This document shows positions 40,304-47,772 of a DNA stretch of 64,000 bases, piece after piece (position 1 is the first letter of the stretch; each line of letters begins with the position of its first letter). The notes beneath the pieces are model-generated. The model ran no database searches, was not told where the DNA came from, and saw only the letters and a list, made by a program, of their open reading frames with translations. The DNA comes from an uncultured Chloroflexia bacterium. Its GTDB lineage: Bacteria > Chloroflexota > Limnocylindria > Limnocylindrales > CSP1-4. The position numbers and the translations under genes were made by a program. The stretch is from NCBI GenBank assembly GCA_963845925.1, contig CAWJUA010000022.1, positions 145,863 to 209,862 of the forward strand, in the 5' to 3' direction.

Positions 40304-40390
40304 ACCCGCCTGACAGACCGTCACCGGGCGGCTCCGACAACGGCCGGGCGTTGTCATGGAGCCGAAAGAATCGGCCGGCATCCTTCCGGC

Positions 40391-40723
40391 ATGACTTCTC
40401 AACGCCGGCTTCCCGCCGAGCGCGATCGCGCGGTCGCCCGCCTCCACTCGCTGACCCGGGGCGCGGCCGTGGGCGGCGTTCTTGGCACGCTGCTGTTCGG
40501 CGCCGTGGCGGCAGCCTCGTATGACGGAACCGTTACGACGACGACGGCGGCGAACTCCAACGAGAGCGCGGCCCAGGTTGCCGCCGACAATTCGACGGCC
40601 AACGGAGCGACCGCGACGACGGACGGCGAAAGTTCGACCGACGACAGCCAGCTCCAGGCCACCCCGGCGCCCACGACCTCGACGACGTCGGGCGCCGCGC
40701 ACGCCTCGACCGGCGGCTCATGA
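40391..40723 (+). CDS. Small exported Thr/Ala/Ser-rich protein (110 aa) heading the ApbE operon. Candidate flavinylation substrate.
   Basis: N-terminal TM/signal (GAAVGGVLGTLLFGAVAAASY) and a low-complexity TS-rich tail containing ..DNSTANGATATTDG.., which resembles the ApbE target motif [ST]GA[ST]x[ST]. Its stop overlaps the apbE start. Confidence 0.45.
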   Translation: MTSQRRLPAERDRAVARLHSLTRGAAVGGVLGTLLFGAVAAASYDGTVTTTTAANSNESAAQVAADNSTANGATATTDGESSTDDSQLQATPAPTTSTTSGAAHASTGGS

Positions 40724-41700
40724 CCGACATCGCAGCGGCCGGCTGGCGGGCCATCGGCACCGGCGTCCGCGTCGTCGTCCACGATGGCAGCCTCGACGCC
40801 GCCCGGGCGGCCGTGGTGGACGTCCTCGACGAGGTCGACCGGGCCCTGAGCCGGTTCCGCGACGACAGCGAGCTGTCCCTGTTGAACGCCCGATCCGGCG
40901 AGGAGGTCGGCGCTGTCGCCGCTTCTCGGCGACGCGATCGCGGCCGGGCTGCGCGCGGCCCGGATCACGAACGGCGCCGTCGACCCGACGGTCGGGCGGG
41001 CGATGCGCCTGATCGGCTACGACCTCGACTTCCGGAGCCTGCCCCAGGACGGAGCGCCGCTCGAGGTCCGCTTCGAGGCCGTGCCCGGCTGGCAGACGGT
41101 CGCGCTCGCCGCGGACCGCCGCCGCGTCCGGGTCGCGCGCGGCGTCGAGATCGACCTTGGTTCCGTCGGCAAGGCGCTCGCCGCCGATCTCGCCGCGGGT
41201 CGTGCGCATGCGACGCGATGGGCCGCGGCGGCGTCCTCGTCTCGCTCGGCGGCGACATCGCCGTCGCGGGTACGCCGCCCGACGGCGACTGGCGGGTCCT
41301 CGTCGCGGAGGACAGCGAGGCGCCGGCCGACGGACCCGGCGAGGTCGTCGCGATCCGGACCGGCGCGATCGCGACGTCGAGCACGACCGTCCGGCGCTGG
41401 CGGCGCGGCGACCGCGCCCTGCACCACCTCATCGATCCTCGGACCGGCGCCCCGGTCGAGTCGCCGTGGCGGACCGCGTCCGTCGTCGCGGCCACGTGCG
41501 TCGACGCCAACACGGCCGCGACCGCGGCGATCGTCCTCGGCGACGCCGCGCTTGACTGGCTCGGGTCGACGGGCCTCGTCGCCCGCCTCGTCTCGACCGA
41601 CGGCGAGGTCGTCCGCGTCGGCGGCTGGCCGGAGCCGGCCGAGACGCGATCGTCTCCGGAAGCGGGCGCCCTCGTGTCGTCCGGACGGGCCGGCTCGTGA
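40720..41700 (+). CDS. apbE: FAD:protein FMN transferase (ApbE family). Two apparent frameshifts (~40913, ~41218).
   Basis: ApbE hallmarks IDLGSVGKALAADLAA, LVSLGGDIAV, HHLIDPRTGAPV, DANTAATAAIV. The central third (SPLLGDAIAAGLRAARITNGAVDPTVGRAMRLIGYDLDF...) lies in ORF 41003.. in another frame. Confidence 0.75.
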   Translation: MTDIAAAGWRAIGTGVRVVVHDGSLDAARAAVVDVLDEVDRALSRFRDDSELSLLNARSGEEVGAVAASRRRDRGRAARGPDHERRRRPDGRAGDAPDRLRPRLPEPAPGRSAARGPLRGRARLADGRARRGPPPRPGRARRRDRPWFRRQGARRRSRRGSCACDAMGRGGVLVSLGGDIAVAGTPPDGDWRVLVAEDSEAPADGPGEVVAIRTGAIATSSTTVRRWRRGDRALHHLIDPRTGAPVESPWRTASVVAATCVDANTAATAAIVLGDAALDWLGSTGLVARLVSTDGEVVRVGGWPEPAETRSSPEAGALVSSGRAGS

Positions 41701-42300: not shown

Positions 42301-43560
42301 ATGGACCTGCGCCTGCTCGCCGGCCCACCGGCCGCGGCCGGGACCGAATCGTTCGGCGACCATCGCGCCCGCCTCGGCGGGCGGCCGGACGGCCCGTCGG
42401 CCCGGGACACGATCCCGGCCCTCGAGGCAAGCGGGCTGCTCGGCCGCGGCGGGGCGGGCTTCCCGGTGGGGCGCAAATGGCGATCGGTCGCCGAGCAGGC
42501 CGCCCGGGCCGGCACTCGACCGGTCGTCCTCGTCAACGGCGCAGAAGGCGAGCCGCTCAGCTCGAAGGACCGGACGCTGCTCCGTCTTCGGCCGCATCTC
42601 GTCCTCGACGGGGCGCTGACCGCCGCCGACGCCGTCGGCGCCGACCGGATCGAGCTCTACATCGGATCCGAGCACCGCGACGCCCGCCTCGCGCTCCGCC
42701 GCGCGATCACCGAGCGGTCCGATATCCGGCTGCCGCTTCGAATCGTCGACGCCCCGGCCGCGTACGTCGCCGGCGAGGAGTCCGCGGCCGTCCACTTCGT
42801 CAACGAGGGCGACGCCCGCCCGACCACGACGCCGCCACGCCCCTTCGAGCGGGGGATCGGCGGCCGCCCGACGCTCGTCCAGAACGTCGAGAGCCTCGCG
42901 GCAGCCGCGCTGATCGCCCGCCGCGGGCCCGGCTGGTACCGCGAGACCGGCCGCGGCGCGACGCCCGGGACCGCGCTGATCACCGTCACCGGCGCCGCGA
43001 ACGACGGCATCCACGAGATCGAGATCGGCACGCCGATCGCGGAGCTGGCAGGGGCCGCTGGCGCCGGCGCGGGCCCCGACGACCGCCAGGCGGTCCTGCT
43101 CGGCGGCTACTTCGGCGGGTGGGTCGGCGCCGAGCGAGCGTGGCGCCTGCCGCTCGACCCGGTCGCGCTCCGCGACGCCGGCACCGCGTTCGGCTGCGGC
43201 GTCGTCGCGTTCCTCGGCAACGGCATCTGCGGCGTCCGGACGACCGCCCGGATCATGGACTGGATGGCTGGTCAGAGCGCGGCGCAGTGCGGCCCGTGCG
43301 TCTTCGGCCTCCGCGCGATCGCCGACGCAACCGGGCGAGTCGCCGCCGGCCATCCCGAGCGTGACGACGTGGCAAGACTCGAGCGCTGGGCGGAGCAGAT
43401 CGCCGGCCGCGGCGCGTGCCGCCATCCCGATGGCGCCGTCGGCCAGCTGCTCAGCTCGCTCCAGGTCTTCAACGCGGAGTGGAAGCTCCACCAGCGCCAC
43501 CGCCAGTGCAGCTTTGGGCACAGCGGCGGGCTGGATGCCGACGGGCGGAGGGTCGCCTGA
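42301..43560 (+). CDS. NuoF/RnfC-like NADH-binding FMN + [4Fe-4S] protein (Complex1_51K family), stand-alone
   Basis: GRGGAGFPVGRKW (FMN/NADH motif). Fe-S cysteine motif SAAQCGPCVFG. Further Cys at C-R-H. 1-nt gap from the upstream gene. Confidence 0.75.
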   Translation: MDLRLLAGPPAAAGTESFGDHRARLGGRPDGPSARDTIPALEASGLLGRGGAGFPVGRKWRSVAEQAARAGTRPVVLVNGAEGEPLSSKDRTLLRLRPHLVLDGALTAADAVGADRIELYIGSEHRDARLALRRAITERSDIRLPLRIVDAPAAYVAGEESAAVHFVNEGDARPTTTPPRPFERGIGGRPTLVQNVESLAAAALIARRGPGWYRETGRGATPGTALITVTGAANDGIHEIEIGTPIAELAGAAGAGAGPDDRQAVLLGGYFGGWVGAERAWRLPLDPVALRDAGTAFGCGVVAFLGNGICGVRTTARIMDWMAGQSAAQCGPCVFGLRAIADATGRVAAGHPERDDVARLERWAEQIAGRGACRHPDGAVGQLLSSLQVFNAEWKLHQRHRQCSFGHSGGLDADGRRVA

Positions 43561-43838
43561 TGCCGGCCGGCCCGCCGACGCGAACGTGGGATCGGATCGA
43601 CCAGCCAAGGCGAACCGGCTGGGGAATGTCGGACGCCCAACTCAAGGTCGACCGGATCGCCTGCGACGGCTACGGGATGTGCGCCGAGCTGCTCCCCGAG
43701 CTGATCGACCTCGACGACTGGGGCTACCCGATCATCCGCGAGGGCGGCGTCCCGGACGCACTCATCGATCACGCCCGCCGCGCCGTCGCCGTCTGCCCGG
43801 TGCTGGCCCTCCGGCTCGCCCGGGACGTGCGACCCTGA
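43560..43838 (+). CDS. Small ferredoxin-like [Fe-S] protein
   Basis: CDGYGMCAELLPEL...AVAVCP is a single-cluster ferredoxin pattern. The ATG overlaps the upstream stop (TGATG). Confidence 0.55.
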   Translation: MPAGPPTRTWDRIDQPRRTGWGMSDAQLKVDRIACDGYGMCAELLPELIDLDDWGYPIIREGGVPDALIDHARRAVAVCPVLALRLARDVRP

Positions 43839-43842
43839 GGCC

Positions 43843-44511
43843 ATGCGCATCCTGGTCGCGGAGGACGATCGCGGTCTCCGCGACGTCATCGTCCTCGGCC
43901 TGACCGACAGCGGCTACCACGTCGACGCGGTCGAGCGCGGCGACGACGCGATCGACCAGCTGCGGTTCTACGAGTACGACGTCGCGATCCTCGACTGGCG
44001 AATGCCCGGCCGCGAGGGGATCGACGTCGTCGAGTGGGCCCGTCGCCACAAGCGCCCGACGGCGATCCTCATGCTGACCGCCCGCGACACGCCGGCCGAC
44101 CGGATCCGCGGCCTCGACAGCGGCGCCGACGACTACCTCGTGAAGCCGTTCGACTTCGGCGAGCTCCTCGCCCGCGTTCGGGCCCTCCAGCGGCGGCCGC
44201 GCGGCGTCGATGGCGCGACGATCGACCGGGGCCGGCTCAGCCTCGACCCGGTCAGCCGGCTGGTGATGGTCGACGACCGCGAGCTGAGCCTGACCTCGAC
44301 GGAGTACCGGATCCTCGAGCTGCTGCTGCGGCGCTCGCCGGCCGTCGTCGACCGCAAGGCGATCGCCGAGCATGCCTGGGCCGACGAGACCGACCCGCTC
44401 GGCTCGAACGCGATCGACGTCCAGCTCAGCCGCCTCCGGGCGAAGCTGCCCGGCGCGGGAATCCGGATCGTCACGGTCCGCGGCGCCGGCTATCGGCTCG
44501 AGGAGTCCTGA
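43843..44511 (+). CDS. OmpR-family response regulator
   Basis: Receiver domain (DVAILDWRMPG, phospho-acceptor Asp) with a winged-helix C-terminus (YRILELLL..GAGYRL). 4 nt after the ferredoxin stop. Confidence 0.9.
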   Translation: MRILVAEDDRGLRDVIVLGLTDSGYHVDAVERGDDAIDQLRFYEYDVAILDWRMPGREGIDVVEWARRHKRPTAILMLTARDTPADRIRGLDSGADDYLVKPFDFGELLARVRALQRRPRGVDGATIDRGRLSLDPVSRLVMVDDRELSLTSTEYRILELLLRRSPAVVDRKAIAEHAWADETDPLGSNAIDVQLSRLRAKLPGAGIRIVTVRGAGYRLEES

Positions 44512-44513
44512 CC

Positions 44514-45737
44514 GTGGCCGTCGCGGCGCTGCCGAGCGTCCGCCGGGTCTCGATCCGCGTCGCCCTCCTCGCGACGGCGGTCGTCGCGGCCGCGTACCTC
44601 GCGGTCTGCGTCGGCGTGATCGCGATCGTCCAGCGCAACCTCACTGACCAGATCGACCAGCGGATCACCGCGTCGTTCGTCCGGCTCGACGACGACCACG
44701 GCCGCGACGACCACCCGTACCAGGCCCCACCGCCGGAGCGGTTCGGCGGCGCCCCGGTCGTGGTCTGGGCCGTCGATTCGGGTGGCCAGGTCCACACCGA
44801 CAGCGCGAACCCGGCCCTACCTGCCGAGTACACCAGCGTCCGCGGGCCGGTCACTGCCACGATCAACGGCGTCGATCTCAGGCTCGCCGGCCAGGCCGTC
44901 GGCGACGACTGGGTCGTCATCGGCCAGTCGCTCGAGGGGGTCAGCGAGACCCGCCAGAACGTGATCGTCGCGGAGCTGCTGATCGCGCCGTTCCTCCTTG
45001 GGGCGGTGTTCCTCGGCGCGCTCTGGATCGGCCGGCGGGTTGCCGCGCCGATCGAGGCATCGCGCCGCCGCCAGCTCGACTTCACGGCCGACGCTTCTCA
45101 CGAGCTGCGGACGCCGCTCGCGGTCATCGAGGCCCAGACGAGCCTCGCCCTGGCCGGCCAGCGGGACGTGGCCTGGTCCCGGGCCGCGTTCGAGCGTGTC
45201 GACGACGAGGCCAAGCGGATGCGAAGGATGCTCGAGGACCTCCTCTGGCTGGCCCGGTTCGACGCCTCGAAGCGGCCGGTCGACGTCGAGCCGGTCGACC
45301 TGGCGGTGATGGCCGGCCAGGCAGTCGATCGGTTCGGGCCGGTCGCCGAGACCCGGCGCCTCACGATCGAGGTCCACGCGCCGCCCGACGGCGCGGTCGT
45401 CGCGGCACCGCCCGAATGGCTCGATCGCCTGCTCGGCGTGCTGCTCGACAACGCCTGCAAATACGCGCCCGACGGCGGCCGTGTCGACGTGACCGTTGCG
45501 ATCGACGGGTCGCGCGTCGCCCTGACGGTGGACGACAGCGGCCCGGGCATCCCCGAAGGCGAGCGGACGCGGATCTTCGACCGGTTCCACCGGGCGACCG
45601 ACGAGGCCGGCGGGGCTGGCCTGGGCCTCGCGATCGCCGACGCGATCGTCCGGGCGACGGGCGGCCGCTGGCGCGTCGCGAGCTCGCCGTCCGGGGGCGC
45701 CCGGATGGGCGTCAGCTGGACGCGCGCCCTCGCCTGA
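44514..45737 (+). CDS. Sensor histidine kinase (HAMP-HisKA-HATPase_c)
   Basis: GTG start 2 nt after the response regulator stop. Two TMS. H-box SHELRTPL. N, G1, G2 boxes (LDNACKYAP, DDSGPGIP, GGAGLGLAI). Confidence 0.85.
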   Translation: MAVAALPSVRRVSIRVALLATAVVAAAYLAVCVGVIAIVQRNLTDQIDQRITASFVRLDDDHGRDDHPYQAPPPERFGGAPVVVWAVDSGGQVHTDSANPALPAEYTSVRGPVTATINGVDLRLAGQAVGDDWVVIGQSLEGVSETRQNVIVAELLIAPFLLGAVFLGALWIGRRVAAPIEASRRRQLDFTADASHELRTPLAVIEAQTSLALAGQRDVAWSRAAFERVDDEAKRMRRMLEDLLWLARFDASKRPVDVEPVDLAVMAGQAVDRFGPVAETRRLTIEVHAPPDGAVVAAPPEWLDRLLGVLLDNACKYAPDGGRVDVTVAIDGSRVALTVDDSGPGIPEGERTRIFDRFHRATDEAGGAGLGLAIADAIVRATGGRWRVASSPSGGARMGVSWTRALA

Positions 45738-45781
45738 CGAATCTCATCAAATCGAAAGGTTTGGGTGGCAGCCTGTCCCCG

Positions 45782-46123
45782 ATGAACCGCGCGACCCGGC
45801 AGCAGGTCACCCGCCGCTCCGTTGCGCTCGATCGCCTCGAGTCGATCACGACCGGGGCGGCGATCGCGGGCGTCGCCGGCACGATCGGCTTCGGCGCGCT
45901 GGCGGCGATCACGTTCTCCGGCACCGCGAACGCCGCGAACCCCGCGGACGGGCAGTCCGGCCCGAACGTCCAGACCGACCGGAGCGGCCCGAGCCGCGAC
46001 GACGTGATTAGCCCAGTTACCCCGAACACGAACGACGACAACGGCGCCCAGCCGTTCGTCGCGGCTCCGGCGCCTCAGACGAGCTCCCGCCGCAGCCACG
46101 CCACGACCGGAGGGTCGGGCTAG
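45782..46123 (+). CDS. Small secreted protein (113 aa) downstream of the two-component system
   Basis: MNRATRQQVTRRSVALDRLESITTGAAIAGVAGTIGFGALAAITFSGTANAANPADG... has a signal peptide/TM and an Asp/Asn/Pro-rich tail. Confidence 0.4.
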   Translation: MNRATRQQVTRRSVALDRLESITTGAAIAGVAGTIGFGALAAITFSGTANAANPADGQSGPNVQTDRSGPSRDDVISPVTPNTNDDNGAQPFVAAPAPQTSSRRSHATTGGSG

Positions 46124-46212: not shown

Positions 46213-47772
46213 TCAGTCGCTGACGAATTCCCGGAGCTTGCGGCTCCGCGAGGGGTGGCGCAGCTTGCGCAGCGCGTGCGACTCGATCTGGCGGATCCGC
46301 TCGCGCGTCAGGCCGAACTCCTTGCCGACCTCCTCGAGCGTCCGCGGCCGGCCGTCGTCGAGGCCGAACCGCAGCCGGAGGACGCGCTCCTCGCGGCCCT
46401 CGAGGCTGTCGAGCACCCGGGAGACCTGCTCCTTGAGGAGCTGCTCGGTGACGACCTCTTCCGGCCGAAGCGCGTTCGGGTCCTCGATCAGCTGACCGAG
46501 CTCCGTGTCGCCTTCCTCGCCGACGGGCGTCTCGAGCGAGATGGGGGAGCGACCGTAGCGGCGCACCTCCTCGACCCGCTCGGCGGTGATCGCCATCCGC
46601 GGATCCTTGGACAGCTCGTCCGCGATCTCCTCGGTCGTCGGCTCCCGCCCGAGCGTGAGCGTCAGCTCGCGCGTCGTCCGGGTGACCCGCTGCATGGTCT
46701 CGACCATGTGGACCGGGATGCGGATCGTCCGCGACTGGTCGGCGAGGCCGCGCTGGATCGCCTGGCGGATCCACCACGTCGCGTACGTCGAGAACTTGAA
46801 GCCGCGCTGCCACTCGAACTTGTCGACGGCCCGCATCAGGCCGGCGTTGCCCTCCTGGATGAGATCCAGGAAGCCGAGGCCGCGGTTCATGTACTTCTTG
46901 GCGTTGGCGACGACGAGCCGGAGGTTCGCCGACGTCAGGTGGTCGCGGGCCGCCCGGCCCTTCGTCGTGAGGTCGTCGATCATCTCGGCGACCGTCTCGA
47001 CGTCGTTGCCGGCCTCGACCCAGCGGCGGACCGCCGGGATCGCGACCTCGTCGCGGGCCCAGGTGCGCATCGCCACGATCGGCTTCTCGTCACGGACGAG
47101 CGGCCGGCGGCCGTCGCCGTGGACCCAGTCGAGGAGCGCGCTGAATGTCTCCGCGTCGAGCTGCTCGTTATAGATCGCCCGGAGGTTGCGGGCCTTGCCG
47201 AGGAGCTCGCGCGCCTCGCCTTCGGCCGACGCGATCGCGTCGGTCAGGCCGACCTTCGGCGCGGTCGTGAGCAGGTCGAGCGCGCCATCGTCGGCGAACG
47301 CCGCCAGGACGATGCGGTGGGCCTCCTCGGCGAACGGCAGCAGGTACGCCGGGTTCTTCGCCCGGGTCTTGGCCTCGGTGTCGTTGAGGGTCCACTCGTG
47401 GATGTCGAGGATCGCGGTCCACGGCTCAGTGGCCATGCGGACGCCGAGCTCGATCGACTTCGCGAGGACGACCTCCTCCTCTGCGCTGAGGAGCGGGACG
47501 CGGGCGATCTCCCGGAGGTACAGGCGCGTCGAGTCCTCGACGTCGAGCGACTCTTCGTCGACGACCTCGGCCGGCTCCTCGTCCGGATCCGCGACGGCCG
47601 GCGTGGCCGTGGCCACGGGTACGACCGCCTCGGGCTCCGCGGCAGCCGCCGCGAGCTCCTGGTCGCCCGGCTCCGGGATGGCGTCGAGCGAAAGCGCGGG
47701 AACGAGCTCCGACTCTGTCGGCTCGATCCCTTCGGTTCCATTTTCAATGAAGGTGATCAACGGTGACTCCAC
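46213..47772 (-). CDS. sigA: Principal (group 1) RNA polymerase sigma factor, sigma-70 family
   Basis: 519 aa. Acidic region 1.1. Region 1.2/2 ([72 protein letters not shown]). Region 3 and region 4.2 ([28 protein letters not shown]). The long non-conserved insert is typical of RpoD/SigA. Confidence 0.9.

Follow-up and report, generated by a model that had tools for sequence, protein, structure and literature searches.

A conserved C-terminal heptad in small apbE-coupled proteins of Candidatus Limnocylindrales as a candidate flavinylation site

Organization of the locus

The window analysed here, a stretch of 64,000 nucleotides (nt) with a G+C content of 72% from contig CAWJUA010000022.1 of an uncultured Chloroflexia bacterium, contains a gene for a small protein, referred to as p1, directly upstream of apbE, the gene for a flavin adenine dinucleotide (FAD):protein flavin mononucleotide (FMN) transferase (Table 1). 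The p1 open reading frame (ORF) encodes 110 residues (aa) between an ATG and a TGA, and its stop shares four nucleotides (ATGA) with the start of apbE. An earlier note on this DNA had described the small ORF and its stop/start overlap with apbE, an N-terminal membrane anchor, a low-complexity tail and the lack of a full FMN_bind domain, and the present analysis agrees on each of these points. The same note had located a flavinylation-like motif in the interior of the tail, at ..NGATATT..; in the present analysis, the candidate flavinylation site is the C-terminal heptad HASTGGS, and the internal string is not.

In every related locus with enough DNA, the genes follow one another in the same order, namely p1, apbE, a Ferric_reduct/MsrQ-like cytochrome gene, a NuoF-like gene, a Fer4_15 ferredoxin gene, a response regulator gene, a histidine kinase gene and a paralogue of p1, referred to as p2. 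From p1 to the kinase, neighbouring genes of the window overlap or are separated by no more than a few bases. A small ORF next to apbE, which the earlier note had proposed to look for in related genomes, was present in every locus examined, and in each case the two genes overlap by 4 nt (ATGA or GTGA).

Table 1. Positions of the features at the p1–p2 locus, in window coordinates
Feature	Position	Strand	Basis or remark
Conserved upstream DNA element, T[CA]A[CT]-N6-G[AC]AAG[GA]	40354..40369	+	Before p1
p1, small protein gene, 110 aa, unnamed new family	40391..40723	+	ORF ATG..TGA and homologues
p1, Arg-rich N-terminal segment, residues 5–23, predicted cytoplasmic	40403..40459	+	Conservation and charge
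p1, Gly/Ala-rich hydrophobic segment, residues 24–42, predicted single membrane anchor	40460..40516	+	Hydropathy, conservation, AlphaFold2
p1, variable disordered Thr/Ser/Ala/Gly-rich linker	40517..40699	+	Starts with conserved SYDG; string of the earlier note at 40586-40627
p1, C-terminal heptad H-A-S-T-G-G-S, then stop; candidate flavinylation site	40700..40720	+	Putative acceptor Ser110
apbE, FAD:protein FMN transferase, without signal peptide	40720..41700	+	Pfam ApbE 7e-32 in two stretches, middle in other frame
MsrQ-like ferric-reductase-type membrane cytochrome b, 200 aa	41697..42299	+	Pfam Ferric_reduct 6.5e-7, 29.9 bits against a cut-off of 28
NuoF-like NAD(P)H-binding FMN/4Fe-4S protein	42301..43560	+	Pfam Complex1_51K 1.8e-32, NADH_4Fe-4S 6.7e-16
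Single-cluster 4Fe-4S ferredoxin	43560..43838	+	Pfam Fer4_15 3.8e-14; start overlaps NuoF-like stop
OmpR-family response regulator	43843..44511	+	Pfam Response_reg, Trans_reg_C; 88–96% identity across loci
Sensor histidine kinase, extracytoplasmic loop between two hydrophobic segments	44514..45737	+	tblastn, alignment; HisKA and HATPase_c in orthologues
Conserved upstream DNA element, second copy	45744..45759	+	Before p2
p2, paralogue of p1, 113 aa, same architecture	45782..46123	+	BLASTP to p1: 38% identity, E 1e-13
p2, C-terminal HATTGGS-G	46097-46120 (heptad 46097-46117)	+	Putative acceptor Ser112

Architecture of p1

The p1 protein consists of an Arg-rich N-terminus, a Gly/Ala-rich hydrophobic stretch and a tail rich in Thr, Ala, Ser, Gly and Asp. 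The N-terminal segment follows the family consensus RRxPADRDRAVARLRxxT, in which R11, A14, R17 and L18 are invariant in the alignments, and among the family members the 25 residues preceding the anchor contain on average 6.2 Lys and Arg against 2.0 Asp and Glu. The hydrophobic segment has a mean Kyte–Doolittle hydropathy of 1.7 over 19 residues (124 members); here F36 is invariant, and G37 and A40 are invariant or nearly so. In the AlphaFold2 model of p1, built on a 60-sequence alignment, a single helix spans residues 8–42 and the remainder is disordered, with a mean predicted local distance difference test score of 52 and values below 50 for residues 47–88 and 94–99. The positively charged flank of a membrane segment stays cytoplasmic (the positive-inside rule). 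By this charge distribution, the N-terminus of p1 is predicted to lie in the cytoplasm and the mucin-like tail outside the membrane, and it is likewise the charge distribution that speaks for the export of p1 assumed in the earlier note.

The linker between the anchor and the heptad shows no conserved column in the family alignments, and the tails of the 124 members are composed of approximately 22% Thr, 15% Gly, 15% Ala and 13.5% Ser. Sequence searches with p1, p2 and the family alignment gave no meaningful match in Pfam, NCBIfam or the PDB, FMN_bind included, and p1 is not embedded in any of the flavin-hosting domains (FMN_bind, DUF2271, DUF3570, NqrB/RnfD, Flavodoxin_4 and FMN_red). Weak Pfam Mucin matches in 6 of 23 members arise from the Thr/Ser-rich tail, and three family members show weak matches to the Rv2743c membrane-protein family (E 0.0065), far below threshold. 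Between contigs that are otherwise 90–99% identical, the p1 linker differs in length by 6–9 nt (around 40535) and by 3 nt (40620-40622), which is typical of a low-complexity coding repeat. The linkers of near-identical contigs differ from one another only by such in-frame insertions and deletions, and the p1 ORF is clearly a genuine gene.

The C-terminal heptad

The first homology search with p1 returned 17 relatives, and a profile search enlarged the family to 253 proteins, none of which contains a Pfam domain or is named beyond "hypothetical protein". A HMMER scan of 1.84 billion cluster representatives yielded 386 family clusters (50% identity) at E<=1e-3, mostly metagenomic, and the species-representative genomes in which the family occurs are mostly named as Candidatus Limnocylindrales (Chloroflexota) metagenome-assembled genomes.

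After the anchor, the heptad is the most conserved feature of the family. The consensus C-terminus is H-A-x-[S/T]-G-[G/S]-S followed by the stop, and proteins of the paralogue type carry one more residue (…GGSH or …GGSG); many p2-type proteins terminate in ...GGSH and thus possess a second His. H104, G108 and S110 are invariant in the alignments (A4 and A6; 23 and 60 sequences). The heptad ends 119 of the 124 fetched homologues, and x-x-x-[ST]-G-x-S plus 0–2 residues ends 119 of 137 new distant cluster representatives; the entries without it are mostly contig-end fragments or frameshifted calls. Among the 119, His (92) predominates at position 1, alongside Gln (14), Arg (8) and Lys (2); position 6 is mostly Gly (112), with few cases of Ser (4) and Ala (3), and position 7 is always Ser (119/119). 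Furthermore, position 4 (T107 in p1) is Ser or Thr in all matches, and the Gly at position 5 is essentially invariant. When a single tail was shuffled, [ST]G[AGS][ST] stood exactly at the C-terminus in 0.6% of the shuffles. To judge by p2, which retains the heptad without any overlapping gene, the heptad does not stem from the overlap of p1 with the start or ribosome-binding site of apbE.

The minimal motif recognized by ApbE comprises seven residues, D-x-x-[S/T]-G-A-[S/T], with FMN attached to the last one, and a tag of this length is enough for flavinylation, most effectively when placed at an end of the protein (PMC12052999). In the same work, the exchange of Asp for Ala had a minor effect on flavinylation, the exchanges of Gly for Ala and of Ala for Val roughly halved the yield, and Ser served as the acceptor less well than Thr (PMC12052999). 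The p1 heptad is in register with this motif, with Ser110 at the acceptor position 7, T107 at position 4 and G108 at position 5; the Asp at position 1 and the Ala at position 6 of the canonical motif are both missing from p1. The variability of the heptad is greatest at position 1, which is the position where mutation mattered least.

Natural fusions joining the anchor to FMN_bind, or p1 to ApbE, were sought among 270 members and rejected, as the long entries are all mis-called starts or frameshifted read-throughs. In three metagenomic proteins (P0023, P0095 and P0210), the p1 N-terminus is joined directly to p2 or ApbE, which suggests deletions or recombination between paralogues, or assembly artefacts. 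As other roles of the terminus or of the whole protein, a twin-arginine translocation (Tat) signal, a sortase or GlyGly-CTERM signal, a ubiquitin-like GG terminus and a precursor of a ribosomally synthesized and post-translationally modified peptide were likewise considered and rejected on the sequence pattern and the gene neighbourhood.

The paralogue p2 and the shared upstream element

The paralogue p2 is also placed after the kinase gene in six related loci (L003, L004, L008, L015, L017 and L022). Its exact sequence occurs in public collections in a 34-member cluster, whose named entries are called 'hypothetical protein'. A conserved DNA element precedes both small-protein genes. Its consensus, GTCA[TC]…C.GAAAGGA, lies at a fixed distance of 27–28 nt ahead of the ATG of both genes in approximately 20 loci, with a weak TGAC approximately 18 nt further upstream. 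The 64-kb window contains three matches to the element against 0.3 expected; two of them precede p1 and p2, and the third resembles an ordinary Shine–Dalgarno site. At the ATG of p1 and p2 themselves, no adjacent Shine–Dalgarno sequence is present. A hairpin in the upstream leader was considered and dropped, since RNAalifold gave no consensus structure, and a search of the whole window against Rfam gave no matches. The element is probably a shared promoter or leader, implying that p1 and p2 are co-regulated.

In many related loci, p2 is directly followed by genes for GtrA and a PMT_2/YkcB_C glycosyltransferase (L004, 6203-8637; L015, 16454-19126; L017, 10356-13096; also L018). These neighbours suggest a possible extracellular O-glycosylation of the Thr/Ser-rich tails. 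Neither GtrA nor PMT_2 has a homologue anywhere in the 64-kb window, and both are absent from the position after p2 in the window and in the near-identical contigs L021 and L022.

ApbE and the other genes of the cluster

No signal peptide, lipobox or hydrophobic N-terminus was found in the ApbE of the window, of all related loci or of 120 orthologues, the upstream in-frame sequence included. In 83 of the 120 orthologues, the protein starts approximately 8 residues ahead of the conserved W-R-A-[LI]-G-T core. A "long" ApbE of 431 aa (P0241) proved to be a mis-called start, and a homology search aimed at outgroup ApbEs returned solely orthologues of 64–99% identity. The earlier note had overlooked that the cognate ApbE is devoid of a signal peptide, which creates a compartment problem for a simple model of flavinylation.

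In the window, the apbE frame is shifted over about 98 codons, including the DPTVG…GS[VT]GK region, and is then restored. Relative to L019, a short-read contig of 96% identity, the apbE of the window carries one additional nucleotide at 40913 and two at 41208-41210. The long-read contigs L021 and L022 are without the 40913 insertion and show only one additional nucleotide at the second site; these two contigs have fragmented gene calls elsewhere too. The frame disturbance is probably an assembly error, and possibly a sign of a pseudogene.

The start of the MsrQ-like cytochrome gene overlaps apbE as GTGA, and the protein contains two His pairs in two helices, with the four His conserved in all orthologues. 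The NuoF-like protein is a paralogue and not NuoF itself, given that its NCBIfam nuoF_fam score is far below the cut-off. An FMN_bind (PF04205) gene was found neither in the cluster of the window nor in those of L003, L004, L015 and L017. Moreover, the orthologues of ApbE, the cytochrome, the NuoF-like protein, the ferredoxin, the histidine kinase, the response regulator and a DM13-domain protein found beside p1 in some loci contain no conserved [ST]G[AGS][ST], and D..[ST]GA[ST] is absent from all frames of the 64-kb window.

A possible natural flavin-tag

We propose p1 as a natural "flavin-tag" substrate of ApbE that would replace the FMN_bind protein of MsrQ-like electron-export systems, a reading to which we give an even chance. 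This proposal is supported by the conservation of the heptad, its matching register, the strict coupling to apbE in a constant gene order, the absence of a folded domain and the fact that no other protein of the cluster bears such a motif. In addition, MsrQ-like clusters usually combine apbE with an FMN_bind gene; here, p1 is the gene upstream of apbE, and an FMN_bind gene is not present. The broad suggestion of the earlier note, that of a minimal ApbE substrate, fits a protein that is small, anchored, domain-less and translationally coupled to apbE; the specific site that it named is given up.

In the proposed arrangement, p1 and p2 would each pass the membrane once, with a cytoplasmic N-terminus, one anchor helix, a disordered Thr/Ser-rich tether of approximately 65 residues and the heptad at the tip. 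The co-translated ApbE would move the FMN moiety of FAD onto the terminal Ser of the heptad (Ser110 in p1 and Ser112 in p2). Because this ApbE carries no signal peptide, modification of the heptad would presumably take place in the cytoplasm, ahead of the export of the tail. Electrons could then flow from NAD(P)H through the FMN and 4Fe-4S centres of the NuoF-like protein, the ferredoxin and the two haems of the MsrQ-like cytochrome to the tethered flavin, which may hand them to an acceptor outside the membrane or report the redox state to the adjacent histidine kinase. Placed beside the kinase, p2 may couple the redox state to signalling. We infer each of these steps, from the covalent attachment of FMN, the topology and the order of modification and export to the electron path and the final acceptor.

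As a whole, the arrangement may represent a new flavinylation mode, in which the place of a folded flavin-binding domain would be taken by just seven C-terminal residues at the end of an extended, flexible and possibly O-glycosylated membrane tether. The ApbE without a signal peptide would attach FMN to this tag while it is still in the cytoplasm, and the loaded tag would afterwards cross the membrane. Its flavin would carry electrons delivered by the MsrQ-like cytochrome to acceptors at a distance and, through p2, could pass redox information to the kinase. This extended proposal is tentative, and our confidence in it is low. Loading in the cytoplasm would mean that no FAD export is needed.

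Several observations weigh against the substrate reading. A cytosolic-looking ApbE and a tail predicted to be external would occupy different compartments unless modification precedes export. The heptad has His (also Gln, Arg or Lys) and not Asp at position 1, and Gly (rarely Ser or Ala) and not Ala at position 6; the published mutations cover the exchange of Ala for Val, with about 50% flavinylation, and an exchange of Ala for Gly is not among them (PMC12052999). Thr is the acceptor that ApbE prefers (PMC12052999), yet the heptad has Ser at this position throughout. Moreover, neither p1 nor p2 contains a flavin-binding fold to tune or shield the isoalloxazine ring. Finally, if the frame disturbance of apbE is real, p1 of the window would be without its enzyme.

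An alternative assignment is that p1 and p2 assist the MsrQ-like cytochrome and the kinase as accessory or assembly subunits. In this case, the C-terminal peptide would be unflavinylated and serve as a docking ligand or as a tip contacting a metal or haem, with the substrate of ApbE encoded elsewhere. The conserved small Gly/Ala positions of the anchor would suit helix packing, the conserved SYDG lies at a predicted interface and p2 stands directly behind the kinase gene; the heptad His is highly conserved and is joined by the second His of many p2 proteins, the three weak Rv2743c matches point to a membrane-protein family, and the compartment mismatch of ApbE would vanish. However, Gln, Arg or Lys takes the place of His in approximately 20% of the distant representatives while Gly5 and Ser7 are invariant, which fits an acceptor site better than a metal ligand. 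This assignment is also opposed by the 4-nt overlap with apbE, which p1 shows in every locus without exception, and by the lack of an alternative substrate in the cluster or the 64-kb window; the Rv2743c matches are far below threshold, and we consider the assignment rather improbable. Quite unlikely, in our view, is a role of p1 and p2 as mucin-like O-glycosylated surface proteins, partners of the GtrA and PMT_2/YkcB-type genes, with the motif serving that pathway or surface attachment. The GtrA and PMT_2/YkcB_C genes behind p2 in four loci and the weak Mucin matches speak for it, but p1 and p2 are retained in the window, L021 and L022 although such genes are missing at that position, and glycosylation of the linker leaves both the invariant terminal G-x-S heptad and the coupling to apbE unexplained. 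Glycosylation is also compatible with the substrate reading, since a glycosylated tether could bear a flavin tip.

The internal site favoured by the earlier note, with FMN on Thr74 of ..NGATATT.., is a very unlikely position for the flavin. The string DNSTANGATATTDG is indeed present at residues 66–79 of p1 (nt 40586-40627), with G-A-T at residues 72–74 and Asp66 nearby. However, Asn and not Ser or Thr precedes G-A-T, the Asp lies 8 residues before the Thr and not 6, so that it is out of register, and a strict [ST]GA[ST] occurs nowhere in the p1 ORF. The caution of that note that the match might be fortuitous in a Thr-rich sequence was well placed, as shuffled tails contain GA[ST] in 41% and [ST]GA[ST] in 18% of cases. 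Moreover, the conservation that the note had suggested looking for among homologous small ORFs is confined to relatives of more than 80% identity (P0001 and P0002), while all other homologues and the paralogue p2 are without the string. As for p1 being a chance open frame upstream of apbE, DNA of this G+C content is rich in long spurious ORFs, and the exact p1 sequence is not among the called proteins of the public collection; yet with hundreds of homologues, N- and C-termini conserved at the protein level, linker length changes restricted to multiples of three, a paralogue in the same window and an upstream element whose spacing to the ATG is constant, such an explanation is refuted.

Comparison with known flavinylation systems

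The class of MsrQ-like, NuoF-like flavinylation clusters is already known. In the survey by Meheust et al. (2021, eLife, PMC8238504), MsrQ-like clusters with apbE typically contain an FMN_bind gene, and a NuoF-like gene is present in 31 clusters. The cytosolic NAD(P)H module of such systems is either fused (PF00175) or a separate NuoF-like protein (PF10589) (PMC8238504). The present cluster resembles them in that apbE stands beside genes for a di-haem membrane protein (PF01794) and for a module of the NuoF-like kind (PF01512/PF10589), with a presumed electron flow from the cytosol to the outside (PMC8238504). Unlike those clusters, it contains no FMN_bind gene, a domain-less heptad protein of 100–120 aa is the only candidate substrate, and the ApbE is without a signal peptide; in addition, the ferredoxin, the two-component system and the second copy of the small protein are fixed members (PMC8238504). 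The hosts also differ, being Candidatus Limnocylindrales (Chloroflexota) here and Actinobacteria in the case of the MsrQ-like NuoF-like clusters (PMC8238504). The survey retained only ApbE and FMN_bind genes bearing a signal peptide or lipobox (PMC8238504), and given this filter the present cluster type may have gone uncounted. What is new is the small-protein family, whose heptad is the one candidate substrate, together with an ApbE that has no signal peptide and the fixed presence of the ferredoxin, the two-component system and the paralogue.

To our knowledge, all known ApbE substrates carry the motif on or beside a flavin-binding fold, and the sole domain-less one is the laboratory flavin-tag. 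As that engineered tag (Tong et al. 2021) is presented in PMC12052999, it shares with the p1 and p2 heptads the length of seven residues, the acceptor at the last position and the absence of a flavin-binding fold; the tag performs best at a terminus, and the heptads are located at the C-terminus. The two differ in sequence, the tag described there being D-x-x-[S/T]-G-A-T from NqrC-type sites and the heptad [H/Q/R]-A-x-[S/T]-G-G-S. A similar placement of the motif is found in FMN_red proteins (Huang et al. 2024, mSystems, PMC11334425), in which an unstructured C-terminal extension carries the motif and flavinylation has been experimentally confirmed. Both in those proteins and in p1, the motif lies on a disordered C-terminal tail outside any FMN_bind fold; the FMN_red tail, however, folds back on a conserved non-covalent flavin pocket of its own protein, and p1 and p2 contain no such domain (PMC11334425).

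With regard to the compartment, cytosolic ApbEs exist (PMC12052999). The ApbE of Klebsiella pneumoniae that serves a soluble fumarate reductase, as cited in that paper, likewise has no signal peptide; according to the same citation, its substrate is a cytoplasmic multidomain enzyme with FMN_bind, whereas the candidate tail here is predicted to be extracytoplasmic (PMC12052999). Full-text searches of the literature gave no description of a p1/p2-type system or of a natural domain-less flavin-tag. If the substrate reading is correct, the minimal flavin-tag would also be used in nature, and by a widespread family (386 clusters). Such a role would provide small proteins now annotated as "hypothetical" with a function, explain some "orphan" apbE genes and raise a concrete question about the site of flavinylation relative to export.

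Flanking genes

In several related loci, a gene for a membrane-anchored protein with a DM13 domain is located divergently upstream of p1 (L001, 7191-7898; L005, 206-928; L006, 3192-3806; L015, 9124-9876). DM13 is a putative redox domain, and the protein is a possible downstream electron acceptor; it contains no flavinylation-like motif, and its gene is absent from the window. Behind p2, the window contains a sigma-70 gene on the opposite strand (46213-47772). On the other side of the cluster, a cytochrome P450 gene (38966-40303) ends 88 nt upstream of p1. This gene is syntenic in the closest relatives (L001, L021 and L022), and its place is taken by a lactonase or DM13 gene in more distant ones.

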